Source: an uncultured Candidatus Poseidoniales archaeon (GTDB lineage Archaea; Thermoplasmatota; Poseidoniia; Poseidoniales; Poseidoniaceae). From it: a DNA stretch of 64,000 nt. Shown one piece after another: positions 353 through 18,177 of the stretch. The stretch covers positions 36,719 through 100,718 of the forward strand of contig CAXGWS010000003.1 of assembly GCA_964013535.1 (NCBI GenBank), written 5' to 3'. The first letter of the stretch is position 1; each line of letters begins with the position of its first letter. A program made the translations under genes and the position numbers. The notes beneath the pieces were generated by a model. The model saw only the letters and a program-made list of their open reading frames with translations. It ran no database searches and was not told the origin of the DNA.

Positions 353-739
353 TCATTTGCGCTTTTTCAGGCCTTTTTCAACGAGAAAATCTTCCCACGC
401 AACAGCGTGACCAGCGCCGAGAATTTTTGCCGCTTCATCCCCTTCAGACTTGCGGCGCTTCAATTCAGAAGTCGAGTCAATCTGTTTTAGTTCGTCGAGT
501 AAATTGACATAGCCTCTAAGGTTGAGGAACTCTGGAGTTGCAACAATTAAGATGAGACTTGAAAGTACTATCATTCCTATTGCAGCACCGGTAAAATCAC
601 CCCACTCGGCATCGCTTTGCAGGAATAGTAGTTGGTATGCACTGGCCATTAATAAAACGCTGGAGGCACCAAATGCTGTTGCACTCAACATCAATTGTCT
701 GCCGTGCTGCTTGTCCCATAAATCGCCAAAGAACCCCAT
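353..739 (-). CDS. Hypothetical small membrane protein
   Basis: 128-aa ORF with two hydrophobic segments and a basic C-terminus; no recognisable motif. Confidence 0.3.
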   Translation of the reverse strand: MGFFGDLWDKQHGRQLMLSATAFGASSVLLMASAYQLLFLQSDAEWGDFTGAAIGMIVLSSLILIVATPEFLNLRGYVNLLDELKQIDSTSELKRRKSEGDEAAKILGAGHAVAWEDFLVEKGLKKRK

Positions 740-821
740 ATCATCACCATTGCTTGGTAGGTGGTATCATGTTTGAGTTCTTTGATGTTTTGTTTGGAAT
801 TTTTACTACAAATAATCAAAA

Positions 822-3800
822 GTGATTGGGGTAACCATACACCGCGGGGGTGGGGAGAGTATGTCTAGTGTATTTTCCCGACTTCATGAAAATTTGCAAA
901 AAGCGCTTGCTGCAAAGGGTTGGGAACCAACACCAATTCAAGAATCTGCCATCCCAGCAATAATTCAAGGTAACAATAGATTGTTGATTGCTCCTACCGG
1001 TTCAGGTAAGACATTGTCAGCCATTTTACCAATCCTGCACCGCTGTATCAGCGAAAACTGGGAACCATTATCAGTTCTCTACATAACTCCGCTCAGAGCA
1101 CTTAACAGAGATGTTGATCGTAGGCTGCAGGAAATTGCGGAGTCAGTCGGATTACGTGTTGGTTTGCGGCATGGTGATACTACTCAATCAGAGCGAGCAA
1201 AACAAGTTAGAAAGCCACCACACATTCTTGTGACAACTCCTGAAACCTTTCAATTGATGTTCACGGGAAAGAATCTGCGAGGGTTGTTAAAAACAGTTGA
1301 AGCAGTTATAGTCGACGAAGTTCACGATTTAGCGGCTAGCGAACGCGGTTGGCAGTTGTCGTTGGGTTTAGCAAGGCTTGAGGCTTTGTCGGGCAAAAAA
1401 GTACAGCGAGTAGGGTTGTCGGCCACCGTTGGTAATCCGCAGCAAGTAGCAAGCTGGCTTGCTGATGATGGTGAACCAATTATCGAAACCGGAAAGCGAG
1501 TTACTGAAATTGTTGTGGAAACGGAATTTCCCACTCCAGAAGATGAAACAGGAGGGATTGAATATGCCATCCCGTCTCGGGCTCATGCAATATTTCGAAA
1601 TGTTATCAAAATGATTCGTCAAGATGCACCATGCTTACTGTTTGTCAATAGTAGAAGTGATGCCGAGACAATTGCTAACAGGTTACAAAAGATGGCTCCT
1701 GACTTAGATATTGGAGTGCATCATGGCTCGCTTGCAACCAAGACTAGAGTTGAGATGGAAGAGGGTCTACGAACCGGTAAAATTTCTGGGTTAGTGTGTA
1801 CCTCAAGTCTTGAATTAGGCATTGATATTGGTCTAATTAATCGTATAATACAAATCAAGAGCCCTCGTTCAGTTGATCGTTTACTGCAAAGGGTTGGGAG
1901 AGCAGACCACCGTCTTGGTGGCATCGGCCGAGGCAATATTTTCGCTTGGGATTGTGATGAATTATCCGAGGCCACGGTCATTGCTAATAGAGCCATGCGA
2001 GGTGAATTAGAACCGGTAATTTGGCGTGATAATCCAAGAACTGTTGCGGTAAATCAACTAATACTGATGGCCCACTGTTTCAAGGCGGTACCAATAGATG
2101 ATGCTACGAAAATCATTAGCAATGCGCCCCAATTTAAGGATTGGAATCGTGACAATACAATTGATTTATTGGAGGTAATTGCCGATAATTGGTTGGTAAA
2201 ATACGTCGAGAATCCAATCGAATCGCCTTGGTATCGTTGGCCTACAGCAATTTATGAAGAGGCTAAACTGATGGCAGAAAATAAATTGGTAAATCTTCCT
2301 GACGAACGACCATTGTTCAAAACTCCCGATGCAGATATCGATGATAAATTGAAGAAAATAGAATTAAAATTACCTTCTAAGTATGCTAACGGATGGTTTT
2401 CAGTATCAGGCAGAACACGTGACTGGGTCAGTAAACACCTGTCAATGATTCCAGATAAACAATCATACAAAGTTAGGGATAGTGTTACCAGAAGAACCAT
2501 TGGTACGGTTGATGAGGCATTCGTTCTATCGCTCAATGATTCTGGTGAAGATGAAGATGGGGCAGTGAGACGATTTGTCATCGCTGGTCGCACCTGGATG
2601 ATAATTGATGCAGACCCAGAAAAGTCTGAACTATTGGTTGTCCCTGCATCAGACCAAGCAAAAGCACCGCAATGGGTTGGTGAATTGCCACCTGTGCCCG
2701 CAGATGTCGCAAGAGAGATTGGCAAATTGAGAGAATTGGTAGCCGAAGATTTAGGCTTGATTTCTGTCGACAAATTAGACTCTGTTGATCGATTTAACTT
2801 ACTATCATCATCTAATTTAACGCTCACTGACTACCCGATAAATGAGCATGGACTTGGAATGCTGAGCGAGGAAATCGGCGAACACATGGAAGCATCGGGA
2901 GTTATTCCTACGGATAGTAGAATTACCATTGAGGCAAGGAATGATGCAATAATCATCAATTCCTGTCACGGTACCAAGATTAACGAGACGCTCGGTCACC
3001 TACTACTCGCCATGGCCTCGACTAAATCCGGCAGTTGGGGGCGATTAATCATAGAATCAACAAGAATTGGGATTCAAGCCTCGGGTATATCTCCTGAAGA
3101 TTTAGTAGGTTGGCTGAATGAAACGCCACCTGATGCTTTGGAGGGTGTACTAAGCGTAACTCTGCCCAATTCTCGACAGTTAAGGTGGCGATTTGCTGAA
3201 GTTGGCAAGACTTTCGGAATAATTAGGCATGGGGTAGATCCGAGAAGAATAAATCTCCAAGCCTTAATTCGCAAATACCGTGGTACAGTGGTATTGAGAG
3301 AGGTATTGGATAAATTATTTTTTGAGAAAATGGATATTCAAGGGGCGTCTGATGTGTTATCCGCGATTCAAGAGGGAGTGATAGCGATTGAAATTGCTGC
3401 AGCTGGACCAATTGGTCTGTCAAGACGGTCAAGCAAAGATTTGTTATTACCAAATTGGGATAATGCTGCTGTTAGGGAACGACTCAAATTACGGTTAGAG
3501 AACGAACGAGCAGTACTGTGCTGTTTGAAGTGCAAAAGCATCAGGCGATTTAGAGTTGCAAGGTATAATGAGATTGCTGATATTGGTATTTGTCTAAAAT
3601 GTAATGGTAGGATGCAGGCCTGTGCGAGGGAAGGATTGCTTTCGATGTTGCAGGATTGGGTTGCATCGGATGAAGATTCCGACCGAATTAGGATGATAAA
3701 AAATGCAGAAATGGTACAGAATAGAGGGCAGGAGGCAATCATGTGCTTGATGGGTCGAGGTATTGGTGAAGCGACGGCACAGAGAATCCTGCGCAAGGTT

Positions 3801-3884
3801 CCTCGAAATAATCGAGATGGCCTACTTAGAGCAATTCACTTAGCGGAAATAGAATACGCTCGAACCCGAAGGTTTTGGGGTTAA
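822..3884 (+). CDS. lhr: Lhr-type large ATP-dependent helicase (DEAD/DEAH superfamily 2)
   Basis: 1020 aa. Walker [13 protein letters not shown] box, helicase C motifs, and a C-terminal Cys cluster (CCLKCKS...CLKCNG) as in Lhr-core helicases. Alternative start at M14 (about 861). Confidence 0.85.
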
Positions 3885-4951
3885 TTTGCCGTATCTTGCA
3901 AATTGATTAGTTCGGCAGCCTGTACAACATCACCCTCTTCCCACCAATCAACTGCAATAAACGTCGGTCGTTTTCCGTGCTCTTGCCAACATTCATTGGC
4001 CCTTGCAACGAGAAATTCAACGTCATTTGCTTCTCCAGCCTGGGTTGGGTCTGCTAATCCAACTTGATTGCTCAACCAATTATTCATGTGAAATACTTGC
4101 TGATTCCCGTCACCTCTATGCACATCACAGTTCATTTCAGCAGTGCTCTTTTCACCATAATTCGTTGTCCAACTGTGGCTTAGAAAGTCGTGAATCCATG
4201 GGTGTCGTTCATCATCGCCCTGTTCCCAGAATACAACTAAATTAGTTTGATTATCTATCATACTCTGCAAAGTTGGCCATGGCTGATTGACGGTGTGCAT
4301 GAAGACTCTATCCATTAAGCCTGAATCAATGAACACCTGCTCAAGATGTTCAGGCGATACATAATTTTCGACTAATACTGTTACCACATCTTGAGGATTG
4401 TCACTCATTTTTTCCTCAAGATTAGTTAGCCAATCAACTGCGCTTACATTGCCGTACACGCACGGGCTGAATCCACGGTCATCACTGCCGTGACAAAGTT
4501 TCACCCCTGACAAGGTTTTGTCATTTAGGTTATCATAATGTGTGTCGATCATGAATGCTCGCATACCTGCTTGCCATTGAGCGTTGAAGCCAGTTCGATG
4601 GTTACTTGCCGGATAGTAGATTCCATCATCTTCAGTCGCAAATGCATTGTGCGTCTCTGGGAAGGTAACATTGTCATAAGTACGTAAGCATAGTATCAAC
4701 ATTCCATTGCATGGTTCAGTTGGTTCTGGCTCCGGCTCCGGCTCGGGTTCCGGCTCCGGTTCTGGTTCCGGCTCTGGCTCCGGCTCTGGTTCCGGCTCTG
4801 GTTCCGGCTCCGGTTCTGGTTCCGGCTCCGAGCCATTATTTTGGTCTTCGACATTATCTTCTTGGTTATCTCCCAACGGGTCAAGCGGGTCTATACAACC
4901 GGAAAATAATAACAAAGCGGATATTATTAGCGTAATACCAACTCTGCTCAT
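3881..4951 (-). CDS. Secreted lipoprotein with an (EP)21 linker and a PLC-like phosphodiesterase (PI-PLC X-domain-like) catalytic domain
   Basis: N-terminal signal peptide ending in a lipobox-like LFSGC, then 21 EP dipeptides. The domain carries [17 protein letters not shown] and VKLCHGS, which resemble the PGTHDS / RIFDIRGR / LHHGP catalytic boxes of bacterial phosphatidylinositol-specific phospholipase C. Confidence 0.5.
4703..4828. repeat. Tandem hexanucleotide repeat (GARCCN)x21 encoding the EP linker of the lipoprotein
   Basis: Directly visible: ccggctccggttctggttccggctc... repeated. The plus-strand frames give the shadow ORFs (GS)n and (AP/VP)n. Confidence 0.9.
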
Positions 4952-5471: not shown

Positions 5472-6755
5472 TCATTGCTTCGGCAATAAACTTAGGTCGT
5501 TATCGGAGTTTTTACCCAGATAATTTAGTATATTTCCTTGAAGATAAAGCGAACCAATCGACAGTATTGTGCCAGCATTATGTGCATCGACAGATAGGAT
5601 TCTATCTAAAGCAGCATCTACTTTTTCAAAGATGTGTACATTACAATTTTTCCAATTATAATCATTCAAATCATTTGGTTCAATTCCGGGATATCTCCCT
5701 CCCTGAGGTTTAGTAAGGTATAATTCAACACTTTCGAAATTCGAAAAGAGATCATTTACCAAATCAAGCATAACTTCGAGCTCTTGTTGCGGCGAGGTCC
5801 CGAAAATCACAGTAATTTTATCTCGGTCATCTCCACGTTTGGCTAATTCAACCAACTGTTCTTTGACACGTCTAATGCCTGATGGGTTATGTGCTGCATC
5901 GAGAATTAATCTATGACCTGAATCCAGTTTAATCTCTTGCAAACGAGCGGGCCAATTCATTCCGATTTTGGCTGACTCAATCATCGACTGGTCAATATCC
6001 AAAGTGGCAAATATTTGTTTTGCGATTTGCGCCGCTTCACTTAGCACATCAGTATTGGAATCAATCTCAACAAATGTGCAAGGAACGTCTTGCTGACGCT
6101 CACCCAATTTCGTATTTGCACTTTCTCGCGTGTAATTTACGACCGTATTTTCATAATTTTTTATTGGCATCTTTCTAGCAATCAATGGTTTTCCGGGCCT
6201 TGCAATTGCTGCTTTTTCTCGAATGATTTGGTAAATATCTTCACCAAGGATATCAGTGTGTTCTTCAGTAATTGCTGTTAACACCGCTAAGTCTGCGGGA
6301 GCACATCTTGTCGCATCTAATCTTCCCCCAAGGCCGGTTTCGAGAATCAAGTATCTGGGTTGCAAGTCCGCCGCAATCACCATGGCTGTCAAGAAGGTCG
6401 TTTCAAAGAATGTAGGATTAATTGACAGCTGTTTAGCAGTGTCCCTCACAGTGTTTAGAGCACCGTCGAACTGGTTAGGACTGACAGGAACACCGTTCAC
6501 CCTTACTCGTTCTTCAATTCGGCATAGATGCGGTGATGAAAAGAAAATATTGGAATCACCGTTGAGAGTTATTGATGTTGCAAGCAGTGAACACAGGGTG
6601 CCTTTGCCGTTACTACCAGCGACATGAATAACAGTTGTATCATCTAATTTGATGTCTAATGATGATAATATTGCGCGAGTATTTCCAAGACCGAGTGCCA
6701 TACCGCTGGATTTGGTTGATTCCAACCACTCTCGATTTGACAACTGACTTGCCAC
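5472..6755 (-). CDS. folC: Folylpolyglutamate synthase / dihydrofolate synthase (Mur ligase family)
   Basis: P-loop AGSNGKGT and a Mur-ligase central domain (ETGLGGRLDAT); 427 aa. Confidence 0.75.
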   Translation of the reverse strand: MASQLSNREWLESTKSSGMALGLGNTRAILSSLDIKLDDTTVIHVAGSNGKGTLCSLLATSITLNGDSNIFFSSPHLCRIEERVRVNGVPVSPNQFDGALNTVRDTAKQLSINPTFFETTFLTAMVIAADLQPRYLILETGLGGRLDATRCAPADLAVLTAITEEHTDILGEDIYQIIREKAAIARPGKPLIARKMPIKNYENTVVNYTRESANTKLGERQQDVPCTFVEIDSNTDVLSEAAQIAKQIFATLDIDQSMIESAKIGMNWPARLQEIKLDSGHRLILDAAHNPSGIRRVKEQLVELAKRGDDRDKITVIFGTSPQQELEVMLDLVNDLFSNFESVELYLTKPQGGRYPGIEPNDLNDYNWKNCNVHIFEKVDAALDRILSVDAHNAGTILSIGSLYLQGNILNYLGKNSDNDLSLLPKQ

Positions 6756-6855: not shown

Positions 6856-9030
6856 ATGAGCGAAGCAGACATCCCAGATTCTGGTCCGAGCACTGCTTCT
6901 CAAGAATTTGCCATGGTCGAGCAACAACTAGCGCAAGAAACCAGTGTTTTTGCATTGATGAAAGAACAGATGACTTCCATGTTTGGTATGGTTTCGATGT
7001 TCGTTTTGACCATCCTTCTCGCGTTGTTTATTCGGCCATGGTATGATGTTGCGGAACTACACGCATTTGGCGAATCAGGTGCAACACAGTTTAGATTTAT
7101 TCTTCTTGAATTGATCATGATTTTCATCTTCACAGCGGTCGTGATTGCGTTAGCAAGATACAAGAAAGAGTGGGTAATAAAATACGGAATCATGGGAGTA
7201 TTGACCATTGCTCTAATGTATACTACAGTTCCGTTGATGCATATGTTAGTAATCGACTTTGATGTTGAAGACTTTGAATATGAAACCACATCAACATACT
7301 CTGGAGAATATGTTGCAGATATGGGTATGGATGGATTCCTGACTCATGAATTGACTGGCAATGCCACTAATTGGCAAGATTCTATTGCGTTCTACAGCCC
7401 AGAGTCATTGCACGCAGGTGAAGCTGCATGGATTTCGAATTTTAGCAGATTACCTGCCGGAGATTTTGAAAACCTTAGAATTGTGAAATCGGAAGGTTAC
7501 CTCACCATCACCAATACTGCATGGATGTGGACTGTCAATACTGCAACCGGGGCCATTGAGAATGTCTTTGAATGTAATTACTTTGACGGTCAAGGAAATC
7601 TGCAGTTGGGCATGCCTAACGGTTACAGTTGTGACATGGCCGTAATGGCACAGAACGGGGTTTACATCTTTTCGAATAGCGGCGAAGTAACTTATCACGT
7701 AATCAGCGAAAATACCGGTGCATTGTTGGCGCCACAAGCCCAGTGGGTCTTGCCAAGTTACATCAATTACGGAGACGGCTTCATTGAAGCCATACATTTT
7801 GCTGATGACCGCCTACTGCTGGTAACCGAAAAAACCGCCATGGTTATGGCACTTAAGACTAGCAAGGTATCTCTGACAGCCGAAGAGATGCCAATCGAAT
7901 TTGAGCACTATACAGAAGCCGGTTTAACCTCTGCAGACTTCGGACATTCACCGTGGTCAACCGAGAAAATAAGCGATAACAACGGCATGAGTGGTTTACT
8001 AATTGTCGGTGAGGCAAACGGTAACGTTACGGGTTGGGAATGGAATGGAACAAAATCAGATACAAACCAATTTTCTTTGCAGGAAAAGATGAAAATTAAT
8101 GGATTGGTTGACACAGTAAAGCAGGTACAAATCACCGACTTGGGCAACTCAGGATACTCTGACCTACTGGTTTCAGACAACGAAAATTCCTTTTGGTTAT
8201 ACTCTAGCTTACTGAAGAACCGAGCAACATTTAGCGTTGCGGACGATTTCTTGCAAGGAGTGTTTCTAAGCAATGGATCAGAGGATTACTATTATGCGGT
8301 TTCAGCATCTTCGATTGATAGTGGCATTATTGAAGACAACATGTACACTTTAGACGGCTTACAATTGTACAATGTTCCTTTCTGGGCAGGTGTGATATTG
8401 GGATTGCTGCTAATGATTCTCCTTTACTTCCACAGTGAGTGGTATGTGGTGAATACAGTTGGAGTTCTTGTCGGTTCAGGGGTTATTGTTATGCTGGGCG
8501 TGGCATTTGTCCCAGGATTGATTATGATTTTCATGATATTAGCCGCTATTTATGATGCTTGGGCGGTTTACCGCTCGAAACACATGTTAGAATTAGCAGA
8601 CACCATGATTGGCCTTCAGTTGCCAATTCTATTGGTGGCACCACAGGATAAAGGCTACTCATTCAAGGATGAGAAGACCAAGATGGTCGACAAACCACAG
8701 ATTGCTCACTCTTCACCTCCGGTAAACGCTTCAAAGGTAGTTAAGAAGAAGAATAGTGAAGCGTTGTTTATGGGTCTTGGTGATATCATTTTCCCCGGTA
8801 TGTTGGTATTGTCTGCCGTACAGTGGCTGGATAGTGACAGTGCTTTTGCGATTGCTATGTTTGCATTGGCAGGGTCCTTGTTGGGCTATCTTGCACTGAT
8901 GAGTTATGTTGCCAGGGGTCGGGCACAAGCAGGATTGCCACTATTAAACGGTGGAGCGATCTTGGGCTATTTGATTGGCGGATTAATCTTCATGGGCACT
9001 GAAATTTTCAATCTTGGTATTTCGTTTTAG
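6856..9030 (+). CDS. Signal peptide peptidase / presenilin-like GxGD intramembrane aspartyl protease (A22 family) with a large insertion between TM3 and TM4
   Basis: Nine predicted TM segments. AAIYDAWAVY (YD motif, compare SPP LYDVFWVF), FMGLGDIIFPG (GxGD motif, compare SPP GLGDIVIPG) and a C-terminal QAGLPLL (PAL-like). A soluble region of about 370 aa (roughly nt 7258-8356) sits between the third and fourth TM. Confidence 0.55.
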   Translation: MSEADIPDSGPSTASQEFAMVEQQLAQETSVFALMKEQMTSMFGMVSMFVLTILLALFIRPWYDVAELHAFGESGATQFRFILLELIMIFIFTAVVIALARYKKEWVIKYGIMGVLTIALMYTTVPLMHMLVIDFDVEDFEYETTSTYSGEYVADMGMDGFLTHELTGNATNWQDSIAFYSPESLHAGEAAWISNFSRLPAGDFENLRIVKSEGYLTITNTAWMWTVNTATGAIENVFECNYFDGQGNLQLGMPNGYSCDMAVMAQNGVYIFSNSGEVTYHVISENTGALLAPQAQWVLPSYINYGDGFIEAIHFADDRLLLVTEKTAMVMALKTSKVSLTAEEMPIEFEHYTEAGLTSADFGHSPWSTEKISDNNGMSGLLIVGEANGNVTGWEWNGTKSDTNQFSLQEKMKINGLVDTVKQVQITDLGNSGYSDLLVSDNENSFWLYSSLLKNRATFSVADDFLQGVFLSNGSEDYYYAVSASSIDSGIIEDNMYTLDGLQLYNVPFWAGVILGLLLMILLYFHSEWYVVNTVGVLVGSGVIVMLGVAFVPGLIMIFMILAAIYDAWAVYRSKHMLELADTMIGLQLPILLVAPQDKGYSFKDEKTKMVDKPQIAHSSPPVNASKVVKKKNSEALFMGLGDIIFPGMLVLSAVQWLDSDSAFAIAMFALAGSLLGYLALMSYVARGRAQAGLPLLNGGAILGYLIGGLIFMGTEIFNLGISF

Positions 9031-9038
9031 GTGATTAA

Positions 9039-10331
9039 ATGTTAGATATTCACATGTTCAGGGATAATCAAGCACAAATTCGTGCTGATCACGACAAGCG
9101 TGGCATTTCCCATGACAAGATAGATGAGGTTCTAAAGTACGATAAAATGTGGTTGAACCTACAGCACGATACCAATCAACTTAGGCAAAAGAAAAATATT
9201 GCAGCCAGGGGTATTAGCGAAGCAAAAAAATCTGGCGATGAAGCAAAAGCACAAGCAATTTTGGCGGAAGTAGCCTCACTAGGTGCTGAGATATCTCGGC
9301 TTGAGGCTGAGACCCAAGCTGCAAAAGAACAACGCGATACAATACGTATGTCAATCCCTAATATCCTACATCCAGATGTTCCTGAAGGTGACGATGAATC
9401 TGGTAATACCGTACACAGCGTCTATGGGGAAAAACCTGAATTTGATTTTGAGCCTAGAACTCACAACGAACTTATCGAGATGAACAAATGGGTCGATTTG
9501 AAGCGAGCGGCTAAGATTGTAGGTAGTAGGTTTTTCTTCCTCAAAGGAGATTTAGCGCGATTAGAATTAGCGCTACAAAATTATGCGGTCGATTTCATTG
9601 GTAACAGAGGCTATACATTTGTCCAGCCACCGGTTATGATGAATCGTCAGGCGTATGAGGGAGTTACCGACCTAGGTGACTTTGAAACTGTAATGTATGG
9701 TATTGAACCAGATAAATATTACATGATTGCAACATCCGAACACCCACTTACGGCCATGTATATGGGCGAGACCATTCCAGAAGACCAGTTGCCCTTGAGA
9801 ATCGTTGGAGTTTCGCCCTGCTTCAGGCGAGAAGTCGGCTCCCATGGTCAGTCTGATTTGGGAATTTGGCGGGTACACCAATTTACCAAGATTGAACAAA
9901 TCGTCATTGCAAAACCTGATGATTCATGGTCGATTCATGAAGAGTTGTTGAAAAACTGCGTAGATTTGTGGAATGAATTGGGACTGCATTACGAGGTTGT
10001 CAACATTTGTACCGGTGACATGGGGACTGTTGCTGCCAAAAAATATGACTTAGAGGCTTGGTTGCCTGGAGCAGGACAATACAAGGAAATTGTCTCATGT
10101 TCAAATTGCACTGACTACCAAGCCAATCGTTTGCAAATAAAATACGGTCAGCCAGGCCATGCTAATCAACCGATAGTCCACACGCTCAACTCTACCGCAG
10201 TTGCAACCTCAAGGGCTTTAGTAGCAATCATTGAACAAAACCAACTGGCGGATGGTAGAGTGAAAATACCCGAAGTTCTCGTGCCGCTTATGGGCGGGCA
10301 GACTATCTTAGAACCATGTCAGTGGGGCTAA
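9039..10331 (+). CDS. serS: Seryl-tRNA synthetase
   Basis: N-terminal coiled-coil tRNA-binding arm, class II aaRS motifs and a C-terminal catalytic core; 430 aa. Confidence 0.85.
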   Translation: MLDIHMFRDNQAQIRADHDKRGISHDKIDEVLKYDKMWLNLQHDTNQLRQKKNIAARGISEAKKSGDEAKAQAILAEVASLGAEISRLEAETQAAKEQRDTIRMSIPNILHPDVPEGDDESGNTVHSVYGEKPEFDFEPRTHNELIEMNKWVDLKRAAKIVGSRFFFLKGDLARLELALQNYAVDFIGNRGYTFVQPPVMMNRQAYEGVTDLGDFETVMYGIEPDKYYMIATSEHPLTAMYMGETIPEDQLPLRIVGVSPCFRREVGSHGQSDLGIWRVHQFTKIEQIVIAKPDDSWSIHEELLKNCVDLWNELGLHYEVVNICTGDMGTVAAKKYDLEAWLPGAGQYKEIVSCSNCTDYQANRLQIKYGQPGHANQPIVHTLNSTAVATSRALVAIIEQNQLADGRVKIPEVLVPLMGGQTILEPCQWG

Positions 10332-12826
10332 TCGAGCAGACCAGCCTTTTCAATTTCTGAAATGTCAATATCCCCGGGTAACCCGAGGTCTACGGGCATT
10401 CCTCCAATGGTGATTATTACACCCGTAATATGAGTAAACAAACAAGGGGGGAAATCGCTTTCATTCTTCTTGTCGTTCAGTAACTTCCAACCGCTTGCTG
10501 ATTTGCGTTTTATCTTAGCGAAGGTCTCGACATCTCCAAATGCAATCCAGCCATTAGCGTTCCAGGCATGTTTCTGTAACTCTTTGGTCACAAAGGCTGG
10601 AGCAGGGGCTACAGTATGACGATACGGCCAAGCGTTTACCCAATCAAGCCCTGAGTCACGTAGCCATTCGATGCCAGTTGGCTCGCTACTGGCAGAGATA
10701 GTTTGCCCAATTGATTCTAAATGTCTCAACAAGCTGCGCAAATGAGGATGCCTTGATTGATTCTTAGCGAGATTTTCGGCTATGTTAGTTGCCGTCAGTA
10801 TTCTCCCCTCATCAAGGTGCAGTAGTGCACAAACAACATTTCCGTGAACCCATCCTTCGAGACCATTAGTTTTGATGTATCTCTCAAGAAGATTCAGTGC
10901 CTTTTCGAATTTCCCAATTAATCGAAGCCTGGCAACATCGCCAAGCAAAATAAGCCGGTCAGCAGGCTTATCACGATATGCCATTTCAGTAATTGGTTGA
11001 TTGTCTCTATAACGCTTAATCAAGTCAATATTACGCTTAGTTAGTGGATCTACGGACAGCAATGATTTGACTTTCTGGTCGAGTTGGCGTTTTTTAGGCT
11101 GCATAATTGAGGCGAACCATTTGAGTCTTGCCGCCTCAATATCGTCATCGGGCAACATTGCAATTCGAGGTTTTGCTTCGGCTAAGTCACGCTGACTCAA
11201 ACTTGCTGCAACTAGAATCAATCTCGCAATTTGCGCCTCACGACCGCCTCGTAGCGCTAAGATCGAAACAGCGTTATTTTCTGCATCATCCCAGCGTCCC
11301 ATGGCAGCATAAATTTCCATCATAGCATCGGTTTTTCTCACCAAATCAAGACCTTCTAATTGTTCTCCATGACCTTCTATCACCGCGTCAATTCGTTTCA
11401 ATGCCTTGTCCCATGAGTCTTCGGTTACCAATTTTCTAATCGCTTTTTGTTTAAGGTAAATTACATCCTCTAATTGGGCCATTCGAGCGCGGTTTTCACC
11501 AACTGATGCATCAAAGGATATATCTTCGAGTCGAGAGCCGATTTTCCTCGATCTTGCCCATATTACGACGAAGGCAACTTGACCACCAGAAGCAAGCATC
11601 CAAGTCAATTCCTCCAAAGCATCTTTTTGCATCACGGTGCAGATATTGTTTTCCCACGAACCGCAGGCTGCACCCTGCGGCAAGAAAGACGAATCCCAGA
11701 ATGTTATCATGGCCAAGGCCAACAGAAGCATCGATTGTCCGGCAAATCCGGTGAAGCAGAAATTCAAAACTTTAGCTTGCTGACTTCGTTCTGCTCTTAG
11801 CAAACGGCTATCTGCCAACTTAATCCCGCCTTTACCTGATACGTCTTGTACATCGAGGAAAAGTATGCGGGCAACTTCATACACAAACAAGAAACCTATC
11901 AGCGCAACGTTAAGCAATAGGAACAGCAGTACCATATTCACCAGTGGTACCCTGATACCCTCTGCAGGGATGAAAGCAAATAACTCGATGAGGGCAAATC
12001 CAAGAATTCCACCCTCTTCCATAATCGAGGATTGAACACGGTATTCTGGTAAATTTAGGACTCTATCGGAGTGAGTAAACATATTTGGGTCAATTGCGAT
12101 GGCAAATATCGAAACTATGGTATTGAATGCAACGAACGGCATTACAGATAGGTTGATGTTTACTATCTGAGCAATTGCTTGTTGTTTCGGATTTGGCTTG
12201 TGATTGTGAAATGGCGAGGGTTCACCTCCCGCTATTTTGATTGATGACTGTTTCAATGCTTGCCAAGAAGACCCCAACACTCTGCCATAGGCCAGCACGG
12301 CTGGTGAGAAGGCAATAAATGCACAGATACTGAATACTCGATACGATGGAACTTCAAGAGAGGTGAGTAATACCGCAATTATTCCTACAAAAATCATCCA
12401 ACTCAAGGTAAGTACCACATACGAGTAAGTTTGCCAAATATTTGAGTTCTGTAATGTGGCTCGACCCGCTCCAACTGGTTTTACCACCTGAGCGCCAAGC
12501 GATGAACCGCTGGATATTATTGCCGGTATAGCAATGAATGACAATGCGATGATAATTGATGCTGCGTGAAATCCGTCTGAGAGGCCGTATTCCGTCAGCA
12601 AGAATTCAAACAACAAGATCAATACTCCGGTTAAGGCAAACATATAGCTGGTAACACCGAACCTCATCCCTTTGGTTTGAAGGAGATTTCTTGCATCCTC
12701 CACCGACCTTGTAACATTGTGGACTTCGTAGCGTTTTTCTGCAGTTTGAAATGCGACTTGTAATCCTCTTAATTGTCTTGGTACCACACTATTGTAAAAC
12801 AAGTATGCCGTAACGGCTGCAAGCAA
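10328..12826 (-). CDS. Hypothetical polytopic membrane protein with a TPR-like helical domain
   Basis: 832 aa. Many hydrophobic segments in the N-terminal two thirds, then a helical, repeat-like soluble region. No catalytic motif recognised. Its 3' end overlaps the serS stop by 4 nt (convergent). Confidence 0.5.
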   Translation of the reverse strand: MLAAVTAYLFYNSVVPRQLRGLQVAFQTAEKRYEVHNVTRSVEDARNLLQTKGMRFGVTSYMFALTGVLILLFEFLLTEYGLSDGFHAASIIIALSFIAIPAIISSGSSLGAQVVKPVGAGRATLQNSNIWQTYSYVVLTLSWMIFVGIIAVLLTSLEVPSYRVFSICAFIAFSPAVLAYGRVLGSSWQALKQSSIKIAGGEPSPFHNHKPNPKQQAIAQIVNINLSVMPFVAFNTIVSIFAIAIDPNMFTHSDRVLNLPEYRVQSSIMEEGGILGFALIELFAFIPAEGIRVPLVNMVLLFLLLNVALIGFLFVYEVARILFLDVQDVSGKGGIKLADSRLLRAERSQQAKVLNFCFTGFAGQSMLLLALAMITFWDSSFLPQGAACGSWENNICTVMQKDALEELTWMLASGGQVAFVVIWARSRKIGSRLEDISFDASVGENRARMAQLEDVIYLKQKAIRKLVTEDSWDKALKRIDAVIEGHGEQLEGLDLVRKTDAMMEIYAAMGRWDDAENNAVSILALRGGREAQIARLILVAASLSQRDLAEAKPRIAMLPDDDIEAARLKWFASIMQPKKRQLDQKVKSLLSVDPLTKRNIDLIKRYRDNQPITEMAYRDKPADRLILLGDVARLRLIGKFEKALNLLERYIKTNGLEGWVHGNVVCALLHLDEGRILTATNIAENLAKNQSRHPHLRSLLRHLESIGQTISASSEPTGIEWLRDSGLDWVNAWPYRHTVAPAPAFVTKELQKHAWNANGWIAFGDVETFAKIKRKSASGWKLLNDKKNESDFPPCLFTHITGVIITIGGMPVDLGLPGDIDISEIEKAGLLD

Positions 12827-12894: not shown

Positions 12895-15015
12895 TCAGAC
12901 TAGGCTGGGTTGCGATAATTTCTCACTAATTTCATTGTTGATTTTGCTGATAAATTCATCAAGTGGTATATCTGCTACTTGATCTCCATTGCGCGCTCGC
13001 AAACTAACAGTGTGATTTTCTGCTTCACCATCTCCAAGGATAATCATGTAGGCCGGGTGAAGTTTTCTGTGAGTTCTAATCTTCTTGCCGATGGTGTCAT
13101 CTCCATCATCAATCTGTACTCGAATACCATTTTCCTTTAGTTTTTCAGCAACTGTATTAGCATATTCAGTGTGCTTCTGAGAAATGGTTAGAATATGGCA
13201 CTGAGTTGGTGACAACCAAGTAGGGAAGCGGCCGGCAAAATGTTCGATTAGCACACCACAGAACCTCTCCATAGAGCCGAACGGTGCTCGATGTATCATC
13301 ACCGGTCGATGCAATTCACCATCTGAGCCTTTGTAGGTCAAATCGAAACGCTCCGGCAGGTTGTAATCTACCTGAACAGTTCCTAACTGCCATTCACGGC
13401 CAATAACATCCTTCACGACGAAATCAATTTTTGGCCCGTAGAACGCTGCTTCGCCTTCTTCTTCTGACCAATCAACACCGAGTGATGCTGCCGCATCACG
13501 GCACGCTTTCTCGGCCTTGTCCCAACGCTTTGGATCGCCAACATATTTGGTTGAGTCCGGGTCACGTAGACCAACCCTAACCCGATAGTCAGTCATGCCC
13601 AACTTATCAAAAATGATTTGCACGAGTTCAATACATCCAAGCACCTCTTGTGCAATTTGATCTTCTGTAACGAATAGATGTGCATCATCTTGCGTGAACC
13701 CCCTCACCCTCGTCATTCCGGAGATTTCACCCGATTGCTCCCAGCGATAAACCGTGCCAAATTCTGCTAATCTTAGCGGTAGATCTCGATATGATCTGGC
13801 TTGCGAGGCGTATATTTTGACGTGATGTGGGCAATTCATTGGCTTAAGCATGTAACCATCAATTTCACCTGACTTCATCATATTGGATAACTCGGAGCAG
13901 GAGCATCCCTCATCGGCTAATTTTTTCATCAGGTCTTTTTCAACCAATGGGGGATATTGAGAGTCTTGGTAGTAGGGGAAGTGGCCGGAGGTTCGATACA
14001 AATCTAATTTCCCGATGTGCGGAGTAAATACTTGAGAATAACCTTGTCTTGTGAGGTGCTCACCAATAAAATTCTGTAACTCTTGGCGAATTATCGCTCC
14101 TCGCGGAGTCCAGAGAATCAATCCTTGTCCCACCTCCTCATCAATGTGGAAGAGTTGCAAATCGCGACCGAGTTTTCTGTGGTCGCGTTTTTTGGCCTCT
14201 TCCATCCTGTGCAAGGTTTGTTTCAAGGCGTCTTTTGTTGGTTCAACAATGCCGTAGATGCGGACTAATTGTTCTCTGTCTTGGTCTCCTCGCCAGTAGG
14301 CCGATGAAACACTAGTTAATTTTGAGAACATTAATTTTCCAGTGCTTTGAACGTGTGGTCCGAGGCATAAATCATACCAATCACCCTGCTTGTAAATTGT
14401 TGAACCCGTTCCTTCTCCGATCTTATCGTTGATTATCTCTATTTTGTACTGATTATCAGTAAAATGTTCGCGCAGTTCTTCATCATCAAGTTCGATTCTT
14501 TCTACGATTAGATTGCGTCTAGCAATTTCTTGCATTTTTTTGTGAATTGGCTTAAGGTCTGCCTCAGTAATCGGCTCCATGGCAAAATCGTAGTAGAAAC
14601 CTCTCTCGATTGCGGGCCCTATAGTAGGCTTAGCGTCTGGATAAAGCTCGACAACGGCTTGGGCAAGAAGGTGAGCTGTGCTGTGTCTGAGGATGTGCAT
14701 TCCGGCAGGTGAATCTGCTTTGATGCCTTCAACTTCACAAGAGTCATGAATTTCGTAGGACATGTCTTTTTGCGAACCATCGACCAGTGCAGCGAGGCAG
14801 CCGTTTTTCTTTCCCAGTGCATCAGTTATTACTTCTAAACAGGTGATTCCAGCAGCATATTCGTTAACTGTTCCATCTGGAAGTGTTATGTTAATCAGTG
14901 CCAAAAAAACCTCTCCTACAGTTGTCGGAGTCTCTAACCCTTCATCAATTTCTCGATACAAATTTGAATTCAGCACTGTATTTTTGCCGCAGTAGCGGTG
15001 TTCAATAATTTTCAT
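12895..15015 (-). CDS. thrS: Threonyl-tRNA synthetase (bacterial/eukaryal type with N-terminal TGS domain)
   Basis: TGS domain (NITLPDGTV), HRKLGRDLQLFH, class II motifs and a C-terminal anticodon-binding domain. The ORF-track start at 15096 would overlap the divergent gene at 15082; an internal start at MKIIEH (15015) is preferred. Confidence 0.85.
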   Translation of the reverse strand: MKIIEHRYCGKNTVLNSNLYREIDEGLETPTTVGEVFLALINITLPDGTVNEYAAGITCLEVITDALGKKNGCLAALVDGSQKDMSYEIHDSCEVEGIKADSPAGMHILRHSTAHLLAQAVVELYPDAKPTIGPAIERGFYYDFAMEPITEADLKPIHKKMQEIARRNLIVERIELDDEELREHFTDNQYKIEIINDKIGEGTGSTIYKQGDWYDLCLGPHVQSTGKLMFSKLTSVSSAYWRGDQDREQLVRIYGIVEPTKDALKQTLHRMEEAKKRDHRKLGRDLQLFHIDEEVGQGLILWTPRGAIIRQELQNFIGEHLTRQGYSQVFTPHIGKLDLYRTSGHFPYYQDSQYPPLVEKDLMKKLADEGCSCSELSNMMKSGEIDGYMLKPMNCPHHVKIYASQARSYRDLPLRLAEFGTVYRWEQSGEISGMTRVRGFTQDDAHLFVTEDQIAQEVLGCIELVQIIFDKLGMTDYRVRVGLRDPDSTKYVGDPKRWDKAEKACRDAAASLGVDWSEEEGEAAFYGPKIDFVVKDVIGREWQLGTVQVDYNLPERFDLTYKGSDGELHRPVMIHRAPFGSMERFCGVLIEHFAGRFPTWLSPTQCHILTISQKHTEYANTVAEKLKENGIRVQIDDGDDTIGKKIRTHRKLHPAYMIILGDGEAENHTVSLRARNGDQVADIPLDEFISKINNEISEKLSQPSLV

Positions 15016-15081
15016 TAAATTACGGTTATTGTTAAACAAATTCCCACAAGTATTGAAGAGTAGTAGGTTCAGAATATTATC

Positions 15082-18000
15082 ATGGCTAAATCCCACAGTA
15101 TCATTGGAATGATGATTCTGGTTCTAATTTTACCACTTTATTCCCCTCTCGTAGCAGCCGATCCGCTACCTGAGGAGCCGCAAATAAACGCTATTTGGCT
15201 GGCTGATGAATTCGGTGAAAATTCCCACAACTACAGGGTCACTTTCGCTGATGGTGAATCATATCAGGCGATTATAGATGTTGTACATGAGAGAAATGGT
15301 GAATCAATCGATGTAGATGTTCTCCAATCTTGGGACTTAATCGATGGTTATCGAGTTGTTGACTTAGTGCTGAATACCAGCATACTATGGAACGATTTAG
15401 TTACCGTTTCAGCCACGATTACTCATTATGATGGTCAAGAATTAACTAATCCAATAGTTACTCACCGAGAATTTGAAATTGGCACTTGGAATCAGCCGAT
15501 GGATGACCATGAAATCATGTTGGAAACAACATGGTTACTCGACCAGACCTACAACAACTCTGATGGACAACAAGGATTCAATTTGGACTTTGCCGGTCAA
15601 GGCTGGCAACAAAGAACCGGTGATACTGTAGAATCATGGGAATTAGGCAATGGTAGCGTATTATTCCTTGAAACAACAGAAATGGGCAGTAATAATTTAT
15701 CTCTTGACCTACAATCGATTTGGAAGAATGAAACAATACAAAGCGGGACATTGACCTCTCAGGTTTTCGAAGCCATCGGCAGTGGCAACATGCACATTAT
15801 CGCATTAGATGATGAAGTTGAAACCTCGATATTAGTACAAGTTACAAATGCAGAACTAAATCGCTCAATAATCGAGGATGTAGTGTCCGAGCGACTGAAG
15901 ATAGATGCAAATGGAGTGCTAAATATTAGTTCAAACGAGGGTGAAAATTCATCAACAAGCATTGATGGTGATATTGGTGTATTTTACCTCGAAACATGGG
16001 ATGAGAACGGCGTTAGGAGATATTACGACCAAAGTTTTGAGGCGATAGCTGAAATGATTGTAATCGAAGAAGGAAGCAGGCTAGACATCGATATAAGCAC
16101 CCTCAGTTCAGGAGAGACTTGGGTTGAAGGGGCGAGAACTGCGCAATTAGAGGAATTAATCGGTTCGGGAACATTTGGTTTCTCCGAAAGCGACAATGAG
16201 TCATCAATAAGCATCAATGGAACAATCTATGACTTCCACACCAAAACAGAACAAGGCATAACATTAGTTGATGAATTACACATAGATGGCGACATAACTG
16301 GCGATGTTCAAGGTAATTTTGGTGTTGTTAGAGGTATTGAGTTGACTGGCCTTCAGGCAAATGCAACAGGGGTAGAATTTCCAGTCAATGTAATACACGA
16401 AGAATCTTGGTTTAACCTGACTGGTATCAACGGTGGTAACTTCTTTGATGGGGCAGGAATAGGTACCACTCACAACCAAACCTGGGATTATCAAGTCATC
16501 TACTCTGATTGGGATAATAGAACGGTTCGTTTGGTCTGGGAAGAATCAGGAGCCGATGCATCCAGCGGTGAAGAGTTCCCCGAGCGTAGTCCAATTGAGG
16601 TTCAGCCCGAGCCACCCGAAGTGGATGAAGCATTGGGAAATCTAACAGTAAGTAGGGAAACTGGCTTGATGCCGATACCTATGATGCCTGGTGATAGTAT
16701 AAGGCTTGACGGACAGCCTGGATTGACTCTAATTGTAACTGCTGAGTCATTGGAAAATGATCCACGAGACGGGCATAACTTCCATGTTGTAACATGGTCA
16801 GGTGTTTACGAAGGCGATGAGTCGGGAACTGCAACCGGAGCTATAATTGACGAAGGGCCGCTGAAAGGACTTATCTCAAGCGTCTCTCGACAACTTTCCA
16901 TTCCATTCGGAGAAGCCGGTTATCTTGCTAATTTTACTGAGACACAACTGCTTACTAGAGTCATTTCACCAGCAGTAGTAACGGCTGAAGAAAATTCTGC
17001 GCCGGTAGTCAACGCACTATACCTCCTCGAGGGATTAATAGTCTCAGAAGGAGGCAGTGTAGCTACGTTGATTGCCGAAGTTAACGATGTTGATTGGAAT
17101 CTAGAGCAGGTAACAGTTGACCTTAGCCCGATTGGTGGTCAAGTTGTGGTAATGAATGACCGAGGTGTTGATGGTGACACAGTAATCGGGGATGATAAGT
17201 ACTCAACACGGATTATCGTCCAAGGTTTGGAGGTAGGAGATTTCACACTCAATGTGGAAGCCATTGATTCATTCGATGTTTTGACTTCTTCCAGCGGTGA
17301 AATCTCTGTCGCCAATCTAGCGCCAAGGATGACGGCAGCAGAAATCTTGCCTAATCAAGGTCCTCGGGGAACAAATATGGTCGTTAATGTCGAGGCATAT
17401 GATGGTCATGGAGTTTCTAACATAAGTATTGATTTGCGAGATTTTGGTGGTGAATTGCTGCAAATGAACGAAAATTCGGGGATATGGACGACTATGATGA
17501 CTGTCCCGGAGGGGATGTCGCCTGGCACGCAAACGTTGGATTTCGTACTGGTTGACGGCTTAGGTAAAGTGGGAATAACCAATGTTTGGTTAAACGGTCA
17601 ACGGTCTGCAGATCATCAGTACGGCTTACATCACATCCCAAATGAAGAGTCCATCCCTATCGAAATCACCGTGGAAAACTCAGCCCCAACCTTCACACTT
17701 CCCGATGTAACAAAGTACACGCGTGGAGATGTTTCAAGCACTGTTGTTTTTGAGGTTGAAATCTCAGATTCGGATGGAATTACCAACGCTCGAGCAAATC
17801 TAGGAGTCTTCACACCATTAGGTAATCAACCCGGGTGGGTTTCTATGAATGACAATGGAATAAATGGAGATAGGGTTCCTCAAGATGGTATCTTTTCAGT
17901 TGAGATGTCGATAAGAACGAGCACACCATTGGGCACCCATGAAATTCAAATTCAAGCAATAGACAGTTTCGACGTTGCCACACCGGTTACTCCAGTATCC

Positions 18001-18177
18001 GTAATCGTAGAAGAAGACACTGATTTAATCCCCAGTTTGGATAGTGAATCTCTATCCAGTACGGTACTGGTTGTGATATTACTTGGATTCACGGCAATCA
18101 CCTTAGTTGCTTTGTTGTTTTTGATGCGTAAATCAAAAGACAAAGAATACCTTGGCGATAGGTTTGGTTTTGAGTAG
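15082..18177 (+). CDS. Large secreted surface protein with a C-terminal TM anchor (adhesin/S-layer-like)
   Basis: 1031 aa. N-terminal signal peptide, many N-x-S/T sequons, acidic composition, and a C-terminal hydrophobic segment followed by a short basic tail (LMRKSKDKEY). Confidence 0.6.
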   Translation: MAKSHSIIGMMILVLILPLYSPLVAADPLPEEPQINAIWLADEFGENSHNYRVTFADGESYQAIIDVVHERNGESIDVDVLQSWDLIDGYRVVDLVLNTSILWNDLVTVSATITHYDGQELTNPIVTHREFEIGTWNQPMDDHEIMLETTWLLDQTYNNSDGQQGFNLDFAGQGWQQRTGDTVESWELGNGSVLFLETTEMGSNNLSLDLQSIWKNETIQSGTLTSQVFEAIGSGNMHIIALDDEVETSILVQVTNAELNRSIIEDVVSERLKIDANGVLNISSNEGENSSTSIDGDIGVFYLETWDENGVRRYYDQSFEAIAEMIVIEEGSRLDIDISTLSSGETWVEGARTAQLEELIGSGTFGFSESDNESSISINGTIYDFHTKTEQGITLVDELHIDGDITGDVQGNFGVVRGIELTGLQANATGVEFPVNVIHEESWFNLTGINGGNFFDGAGIGTTHNQTWDYQVIYSDWDNRTVRLVWEESGADASSGEEFPERSPIEVQPEPPEVDEALGNLTVSRETGLMPIPMMPGDSIRLDGQPGLTLIVTAESLENDPRDGHNFHVVTWSGVYEGDESGTATGAIIDEGPLKGLISSVSRQLSIPFGEAGYLANFTETQLLTRVISPAVVTAEENSAPVVNALYLLEGLIVSEGGSVATLIAEVNDVDWNLEQVTVDLSPIGGQVVVMNDRGVDGDTVIGDDKYSTRIIVQGLEVGDFTLNVEAIDSFDVLTSSSGEISVANLAPRMTAAEILPNQGPRGTNMVVNVEAYDGHGVSNISIDLRDFGGELLQMNENSGIWTTMMTVPEGMSPGTQTLDFVLVDGLGKVGITNVWLNGQRSADHQYGLHHIPNEESIPIEITVENSAPTFTLPDVTKYTRGDVSSTVVFEVEISDSDGITNARANLGVFTPLGNQPGWVSMNDNGINGDRVPQDGIFSVEMSIRTSTPLGTHEIQIQAIDSFDVATPVTPVSVIVEEDTDLIPSLDSESLSSTVLVVILLGFTAITLVALLFLMRKSKDKEYLGDRFGFE

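Follow-up and report, generated by a model that had tools for sequence, protein, structure and literature searches.

Presenilin-family proteases have been studied intensively owing to γ-secretase, and the archaeal presenilin homologue PSH serves as their minimal structural and mechanistic model. Mutating either D162 or D220 of PSH to Ala, Asn or Glu abolishes proteolysis (PMC2947513). In γ-secretase complexes, the transmembrane domains (TMDs) of presenilin enclose the substrate helix, with access debated to run via TMD2/3 or TMD2/6 (PMC13507816); the same paper adds that the ectodomain of nicastrin lies over presenilin and that γ-secretase requires its substrates to have ectodomains that are short (PMC13507816, citing Bolduc et al. 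2016). In RseP, a PDZ tandem between the second and third transmembrane (TM) helices works as a size-exclusion filter (PMC7728848), and SPPL2 proteases use their N-terminal PA domains to tell apart substrates with different luminal parts (PMC12043953). Here we describe a stretch of 64,000 nucleotides (nt) from an uncultured Candidatus Poseidoniales archaeon (GenBank assembly GCA_964013535.1, contig CAXGWS010000003.1, positions 36,719 to 100,718; "the window" hereafter), which carries a gene for a long-form PSH: a GxGD intramembrane aspartyl protease of 724 amino acids (aa), in which a soluble domain of 370 residues, predicted to fold as a β-propeller, stands between TM3 and TM4. We consider this identity and architecture nearly certain.

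The open reading frame (ORF) begins with an ATG, and its product matches the Pfam profile PF06550 ("SPP, presenilin aspartyl protease") with an E-value of 9.9e-49 (166.8 bits vs. a gathering score of 23.9), the NCBIfam equivalog for archaeal PSH (NF041679) with 212.7 bits vs. a cutoff of 125, and the solved PSH of Methanoculleus marisnigri (PDB 4hyc_A, 301 aa) with an E-value of 1.7e-29. All three matches lie far above chance, and they bear out an earlier interpretation made from the letters of the window alone (the sequence-only reading), in which the C-terminal half had been assigned to the A22-family GxGD proteases. The catalytic motifs were likewise found where that reading had placed them, i.e., IYDAWAVY at residues 565-572 (nt 8548-8571), GLGD at residues 640-643 and AGLPLL at residues 692-697 (nt 8929-8946). 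In the PDB match and in a MAFFT alignment of the window protein with five compact PSHs, IYD567AWAVY aligns with VYD162AISVY of the M. marisnigri enzyme (MCMJR1 PSH) and GLGD643 with its GMGD220, so that D567 and D643 correspond to the two aspartates with experimentally established catalytic function. AGLP695LLNGG aligns with AGLPPLNGG, which places a PAL-equivalent P-x-L box (PLL here, PPL in PSH) ahead of TM9. Both aspartates and the PLL box are invariant across 36 close and 30 divergent homologues; with the two aspartates unchanged throughout, a reading of the protein as a pseudo-protease was rejected.

The helices around these motifs are arranged as in compact PSHs. Hydropathy gives three hydrophobic segments near the N-terminus (residues ~42-60, 79-100 and 107-133), followed by six more from residue ~506 onward, and the same helices appear in the secondary structure of an AlphaFold2 (AF2) model. 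These nine segments, three before and six after the insert, are collinear with those of compact PSHs, as a prediction only and with low AF2 confidence in the TM part. Residues 552-573 and 637-655, which bear the YD and GxGD aspartates, are consecutive TM helices parted by a Lys-rich loop in both hydropathy and AF2. Upstream of TM1, residues F18, L25, E28 and Q38 of an N-terminal extension are conserved in the 36 close homologues, and AF2 predicts helices at residues 16-28 and 31-65 with low confidence.

Given the family profile matches and the aligned, invariant pair of catalytic aspartates, the sequence identifies the protein as a member of the PSH/A22 family, with every testable defining feature present, and it is presumably catalytically active. 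Other branches of the clan fit less well. The PF01080 (Presenilin) profile stayed below threshold (E = 0.05, 12.8 bits vs. 34.3), a Pfam scan of the window ORFs revealed no gene for a γ-secretase-type partner subunit in the neighborhood, and a Pfam scan of the 724-aa protein and of its insert found no PA domain; the extra domain sits between TM3 and TM4 rather than ahead of TM1. By these measures the protein is not an SPPL2-type enzyme, since it lacks a PA domain and carries its extra domain at a different position, nor is it a γ-secretase-type presenilin, since PF01080 is sub-threshold and neither a nicastrin-like partner nor a nicastrin-like fold accompanies it.

Concerning the gene model itself, several homologues (P0033, P0038, P0052 and others) have annotated N-termini that lie 25-44 residues further upstream, for a total of 749-768 aa. 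All of them share the internal MSE... start used here, and their upstream starts were probably mis-called. Three antisense ORFs (6900-7289, 7450-7797 and 7908-8273) were rejected as genes, lying opposite a strongly conserved coding frame.

The position of the insert is sharply defined. In profile hidden Markov model searches the PF06550 match is split, with residues 46-130 covering profile positions 1-83 and residues 509-712 covering positions 92-281. In the MAFFT alignment, residues 132-501 have no counterpart in the compact PSHs and fall as a single block at the end of TM3, between residues 96 and 97 of M. marisnigri PSH, and hydropathy shows a hydrophilic stretch of 370 residues between the third and fourth hydrophobic segments. 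The linkers on either side are short and conserved among the 36 close homologues (VIDFDxExFEY after TM3, GLQLY before TM4). The sequence-only reading had proposed a folded soluble domain of ~370 aa at this very place, which the split Pfam match, the MAFFT gap and the AF2 fold (below) all support, and its bounds (nt 7258-8356, residues 135-501) were correct within three residues. It had also described the reference archaeal PSHs as compact; indeed, when complete, each of the 120 closest relatives that the M. marisnigri enzyme has in the database is ~290-307 aa long.

To characterize the insert, AF2 was run on the full-length protein and on the insert alone, the latter with an alignment of 20 insert sequences. 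On its own the insert folds confidently as one propeller, with a predicted local distance difference test score (pLDDT) of 85.5, a predicted template modelling score of 0.86, ~30 β-strands and almost no helix, and within the full-length model the same region has a pLDDT of 80-93 (vs. <55 for the membrane part). The insert is thus confidently predicted to be a β-propeller of ~7 blades. Sequence searches say little about its family. A Pfam scan of the insert found no PA, PDZ, PKD, peptidase or lectin domain, and only FG-GAP_3 (PF13517) appeared, below its gathering threshold (E = 1.3, 10.2 bits vs. 26.9); a PDB sequence-profile search returned nothing significant, its top match being a WD40 protein (E = 0.16). 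Positions 252-331 of an insert profile do weakly hit large FG-GAP repeat proteins, these weak hits are reciprocal, and hhalign aligns residues ~377-449 with an FG-GAP protein over 73 columns (73% probability, E = 3e-5). Just two insert motifs survive in every divergent clade, namely G-[DET]-x-x-G-x-[IV]-x-x-[WFY] and the Ca-loop-like h-x-h-x-D-x-[DN]-x-x-G-x-x-[DE]-h. At the sequence level this weakly suggests an FG-GAP-like propeller, which we do not file as a member of the FG-GAP family.

Other features of the insert are conserved to varying depth. In most of the 30 divergent long forms the insert contains exactly two cysteines, and because the pair is conserved we infer a Cys240-Cys259 disulfide. 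The DFGHSPWS loop decays to xxGxSPWx in distant clades. Ca2+ binding by the insert is putative. At the Ca-loop-like motif (window 8137-8145, residues 428-430), the window protein has Gly430 vs. Asp in at least 90% of close homologues, and metal binding may be weakened in its lineage, to judge from this substitution.

The distribution of charge suggests on which side of the membrane the propeller stands. Averaged over 36 homologues, the loops TM2-3 (RYKKEW), TM6-7 and TM8-9 carry net charges of +2.0, +3.5 and +1.9, respectively (11 Lys or Arg in the 63 residues of TM6-7, and ARGR in TM8-9), and those that are negative comprise the TM1-2 and TM7-8 loops and the insert. The net charge of the insert is about -50 and its pI 4.05, and the insert holds five NxS/T sequons (~six on average in homologues) vs. 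one in the other 352 residues. Following the positive-inside rule, with which the charge, the sequons and the Cys pair of the insert agree, the insert is very probably extracellular, the N-terminus and TM6-TM7 loop inside and the C-terminus outside, i.e., the orientation of presenilin and PSH. It is also probably glycosylated, as judged from its sequons. Eukaryotic SPP and SPPL enzymes are oriented opposite to presenilin, and together with the acidic N-terminal tail this could be taken to favor an inverted, SPP-like arrangement with the propeller in the cytoplasm. We regard such an arrangement as very unlikely: RYKK in loop 2, the Lys-rich loop 6 and ARGR in loop 8 all lie on the face opposite the insert, the insert, with its charge of -50, its five to six sequons and its conserved Cys pair, likewise speaks against it, and the closest characterized relative is PSH (equivalog NF041679).

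Table: Features of the long-form PSH gene and its direct neighbors (window coordinates, nt)
Feature	Position	Strand	Evidence
Long-form PSH-type GxGD intramembrane aspartyl protease gene, 724 aa + stop	6856..9030	+	ORF listing, family profiles, >200 clusters of full-length homologues
N-terminal extension, residues 1-41; acidic, partly helical, absent from compact PSHs; cytoplasmic by topology model	6856..6978	+	Alignment, AF2
TM1-TM3, residues 42-131; RYKKEW loop TM2-TM3 positively charged, hence predicted cytoplasmic	6979..7248	+	Hydropathy, PF06550 match, loop charge
Inserted ectodomain, residues 132-501; acidic, predicted β-propeller of ~7 blades, predicted extracellular	7249..8358	+	
Cys240 codon, first of conserved insert Cys pair	7573..7575	+	Invariant in 36/36 close homologues
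Cys259 codon, second of the pair	7630..7632	+	Invariant in 36/36, plus 31/31 (window protein + 30 representatives)
DFGHSPWS loop, residues 361-368; best-conserved Poseidoniaceae-wide insert motif	7936..7959	+	D361, S365 and W367 invariant in close-homologue alignment
FG-GAP-like blades, residues 385-438: GEANGNVTGWEW and VQITDLGNSGYSDLL, the latter Ca-loop-like Dx[DN]xxGxxD with Gly at position 3 here	8008..8169	+	
TM4-TM6, residues 506-572, with YD motif; putative catalytic Asp567 = nt 8554-8556	8371..8571	+	Alignment with MCMJR1 PSH
TM6-TM7 loop, residues 573-635; Lys-rich, predicted cytoplasmic	8572..8760	+	Loop charge, alignment
TM7-TM9, residues 636-714; GLGD (Asp643, nt 8773-8784), PAL-like PLL (nt 8938-8946)	8761..8997	+	Alignment
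serS (seryl-tRNA synthetase), 8 nt downstream of the PSH gene, probably co-transcribed	9039..10331	+	Pfam Seryl_tRNA_N + tRNA-synt_2b
FolC/Mur-ligase-like gene, divergent upstream neighbor	5472..6755	-	Pfam Mur_ligase_M + Mur_ligase_C

To evaluate the distribution of the long form, the 724-aa protein was searched against 5.8 billion proteins. Among the best 120 of the 209 relatives recovered, nearly all are full-length long forms of ~716-768 aa, 47-99% identical to the query, alongside a few fragments, and several are already named PSH from Candidatus Poseidoniaceae or Poseidoniales by NCBI or JGI. A scan of one genome per GTDB species yielded 195 loci, the best 80 of which bear Poseidoniales, Poseidonia, euryarchaeote or similar titles with one Verrucomicrobiales exception, and matches uncut by a contig end are all full-length (42-75% identity). 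The exception ("Verrucomicrobiales bacterium ARS100", NZEQ01000067.1) and a protein labeled "[bacterium]" (P0099) are long-form PSHs of 45-48% identity, and probably mis-binned Poseidoniales.

Searching with the insert or from the edge of the family led to the same architecture. An insert-only profile retrieved 67 proteins from 1.84 billion cluster representatives, which consist of proteins of 688-770 aa matching at the same internal position, fragments, and a handful of FG-GAP repeat proteins; in all eight distant matches tested, the PF06550 C-terminal half resumes at profile positions 86-94. The most divergent member (P0169) as a seed recovered 324 relatives, those complete among the best 120 being 678-827 aa long, and these include one Candidatus Thalassarchaeaceae and a clade labeled just Thermoplasmatota or Euryarchaeota. 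We suspect, without confirmation, that the most divergent clade (the P0169 group, 678-697 aa) belongs to marine group III or to deep Poseidoniia. Across the long forms the insert measures 336-415 aa and is 14-45% identical to the window insert, as compared to 50-79% for the membrane core.

The locus has a fixed gene order. In 73 of 73 testable loci the next gene downstream, on the same strand, is serS, and in 63 of 69 the divergent upstream neighbor is the FolC/Mur-ligase-like gene; both hold likewise for the most divergent members. The distribution and the fixed synteny together establish the PSH locus as one orthologous, vertically inherited housekeeping locus, and the insert as an old, never-lost feature of Poseidoniales, where the long form is the rule in both named families. 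The phylogenetic check called for by the sequence-only reading thus returned an insertion that is Poseidoniales-wide (195 loci, both families).

The same data bear on whether the insert could be an artefact, that is, a mis-assembly, a gene fusion or frameshift, an intein or a mobile element. In one NCBI record a homologue is indeed broken into a pair of partial proteins (P0188 and P0189), but the uninterrupted ORF recurs in hundreds of independent assemblies, contigs of >1 Mb among them, and on this ground a fusion or assembly artefact was rejected. An intein or mobile-element insertion was rejected as well, as the insert shows no intein or transposase signature and keeps a fixed position with conserved linkers; it also folds confidently as a single propeller in AF2. 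In view of this and of the distribution and synteny above, we consider the chance of an artefact negligible. The split record itself (NCBI MDP6010896.1 and MDP6010897.1) comes from a 9.5-kb contig on which a long PSH is annotated as two adjacent partials, one of 393 aa ("hypothetical protein, partial") and one of 379 aa ("PSH, partial"). Automatic annotation can thus split the gene in or near the insert, hiding its architecture.

What might a propeller do at this place? In the long form, the short extracellular TM3-TM4 loop of PSH is replaced by an acidic predicted propeller of 370 residues, probably glycosylated and disulfide-bonded, and the catalytic aspartates lie in TM6 and TM7 of the nine-helix core. 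In the model that we propose, the propeller, tethered at the outer ends of TM3 and TM4, would be held above the extracellular opening of the helix bundle, a placement suggested because TM3 borders the presenilin access routes and the linkers are short and conserved. There, it would filter or receive in cis the ectodomain or stub of substrates, and so choose which single-pass membrane proteins reach the active site. Taken as a whole, this account of a Poseidoniales PSH with a propeller in place of the TM3-TM4 loop, acting as a substrate filter or receptor in cis, is to our mind evenly poised between right and wrong. Its functional step, the filter or receptor role, is put forward tentatively; a gating or substrate-selecting role had also been raised by the sequence-only reading, and it is plausible by analogy with nicastrin, the RseP PDZ tandem and the SPPL2 PA domain, in each of which a bulky extracytoplasmic domain selects substrates through their ectodomains. 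More doubtful still is the extended claim that the propeller is a cis ectodomain gate or receptor that makes this the first single-chain presenilin-family protease with a built-in nicastrin counterpart, one whose origin would be separate from those of nicastrin itself, of the PDZ tandem of RseP and of the PA domain of SPPL2.

Several points weigh against the proposed gating role. We know of no substrate for any archaeal PSH, and hence of no direct evidence for gating. Where the propeller stands relative to the helix bundle is uncertain, as the TM core of the full-length AF2 model (pLDDT <55) is too poorly modelled to position it by the substrate gate. The acidic N-terminal tail is neutral to slightly awkward for an N-terminus inside the cell. 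β-propellers are generic interaction scaffolds whose fold does not point to a ligand, and the propeller has no fold relationship with nicastrin or with PDZ or PA domains. Finally, the insert diverges much faster than the TM core, which fits a precise substrate receptor no better than a surface-exposed domain under weak or diversifying constraint.

That fast divergence could even mean that the propeller is irrelevant to proteolysis, either as a structural embellishment that aids the stability or folding of the membrane domain, or as a moonlighting surface module (e.g., an adhesin) anchored by the PSH helices, and the insert indeed shows no recognizable enzymatic or binding motif in the Pfam and PDB profile searches. 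We find this improbable, and less likely than either a filter or a docking role. A dispensable module would hardly have kept its length, its Cys pair and its FG-GAP blades while the sequence drifted, nor would it be expected never to have been lost across 195 genome loci and >300 protein clusters in both Poseidoniales families. Moreover, it is inserted inside the catalytic helix bundle and not at a terminus, so that it must be compatible with enzyme function and is probably coupled to it.

The divergence is also compatible with co-evolution alongside variable surface partners, as expected if the propeller docks to or senses something (a partner protein, the S-layer or envelope, a glycan, or Ca2+), and in this way localizes or allosterically switches the protease without touching the substrate. 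FG-GAP and integrin-type propellers typically bind ligands or partners, no feature of the insert is more universal than the Ca-loop-like motif, and a domain predicted to be extracellular, acidic and equipped with glycosylation sequons would suit such a task. However, no conserved partner gene was seen nearby, the neighbors being housekeeping genes (serS, the FolC-like gene and a dCMP deaminase), the window protein itself has Gly at position 3 of the Ca-loop, and the short conserved linkers to TM3 and TM4 suggest rigid coupling near the substrate access face. We judge docking rather unlikely, yet nearly as likely as the filter or receptor role that we prefer.

The sequence-only reading had called the architecture undescribed. 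This holds for the literature searched, in which we found no description of a long-form PSH, an inserted domain or a propeller, within a scope that excluded the one survey devoted to intramembrane aspartyl proteases in archaea, by Raut, Glass and Lieberman (2021, Proteins 89:232). It does not hold for the databases, where the proteins are abundant and auto-named "presenilin family intramembrane aspartyl protease PSH". We view the long-form PSH as a solid, moderately surprising architecture. If the proposed gating role is true, intramembrane proteases have repeatedly acquired a bulky ectodomain above their helix bundle, and the long-form PSH would be the first case within the presenilin fold itself. 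The long-form PSH would then offer a tractable one-polypeptide system to study ectodomain control of substrate access in presenilin-type enzymes, and the recombinant propeller, used as bait, could give a handle on the first physiological substrates or partners of PSH. The long form also looks like a lineage marker of Poseidoniales. Marine group II (Poseidoniales) are the most abundant planktonic archaea of the surface ocean, and in ecological terms the long form would represent a conserved cell-surface feature of dominant uncultured marine archaea.

Other genes in the window and in a related genome are listed here as observations in their own right. In the most divergent long-PSH genome (L081), a site-2 protease with Peptidase_M50 and PDZ domains (529-2088, minus strand) lies ~4 kb upstream of the PSH gene, and this lineage therefore also encodes a classical PDZ-gated intramembrane protease. 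In the window, an 832-aa ORF (10328-12826, minus strand), with a hydrophobic multi-helix N-terminal half and a long soluble C-terminal half, is convergent with serS, the gene ends overlapping by 4 nt, and has no Pfam match at E ≤ 0.001. Further along, a 1031-aa ORF (15082-18177, plus strand) without a match in the Pfam scan overlaps at its start by ~15 nt the start region of a divergent threonyl-tRNA synthetase gene (12895-15096, minus strand). On the other side, a 356-aa ORF (3881-4951, minus strand) yielded a single, sub-threshold hit to an acidic Pro/Glu repeat (PARP-like, residues 35-77), and probably encodes a low-complexity acidic surface or linker protein.

Among known systems, the closest characterized relative is the M. 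marisnigri PSH/MCMJR1 (PDB 4HYC/4HYG; PF06550; NF041679; MEROPS A22), with which the window protein shares the nine-helix core, the aligned aspartate pair, the P-x-L box and the character of a stand-alone enzyme without γ-secretase partner subunits. PSH, however, has 301 aa and a TM3-TM4 loop of a few residues, where the window protein, with 724 aa, carries a predicted β-propeller of 370 aa; the latter also differs from compact PSHs by an N-terminal extension of ~35 aa and a TM6-TM7 loop that is ~17-30 residues longer in the MAFFT alignment. For the insert itself, the likeness to FG-GAP and integrin-α propellers (PF13517, PF01839) lies in the propeller fold and in one or two blades with G-x-x-G-x-V-x-x-W and D-x-[DN]-x-x-G-x-x-D, but only ~75 of the 370 residues align, the remaining blades lack a detectable repeat signature, and by structural similarity WD40 propellers outscore integrins.

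In terms of domain arrangement, SPPL2a/b/c belong to the same GxGD A22 clan and carry a luminal or extracellular accessory domain that affects substrate recognition, although theirs is a PA domain placed before TM1 of an enzyme of opposite membrane orientation, and the window protein has no PA match. Nicastrin, as a large, glycosylated extracellular domain over the presenilin bundle, is the functional model that we propose for the propeller; it differs in being a separate single-pass subunit with an aminopeptidase-like α/β fold that acts in trans. The closest architectural precedent is RseP, which as a zinc metalloprotease (M50) with a PDZ fold is built on another membrane scaffold, but which likewise holds a soluble extracytoplasmic module between two TM helices.

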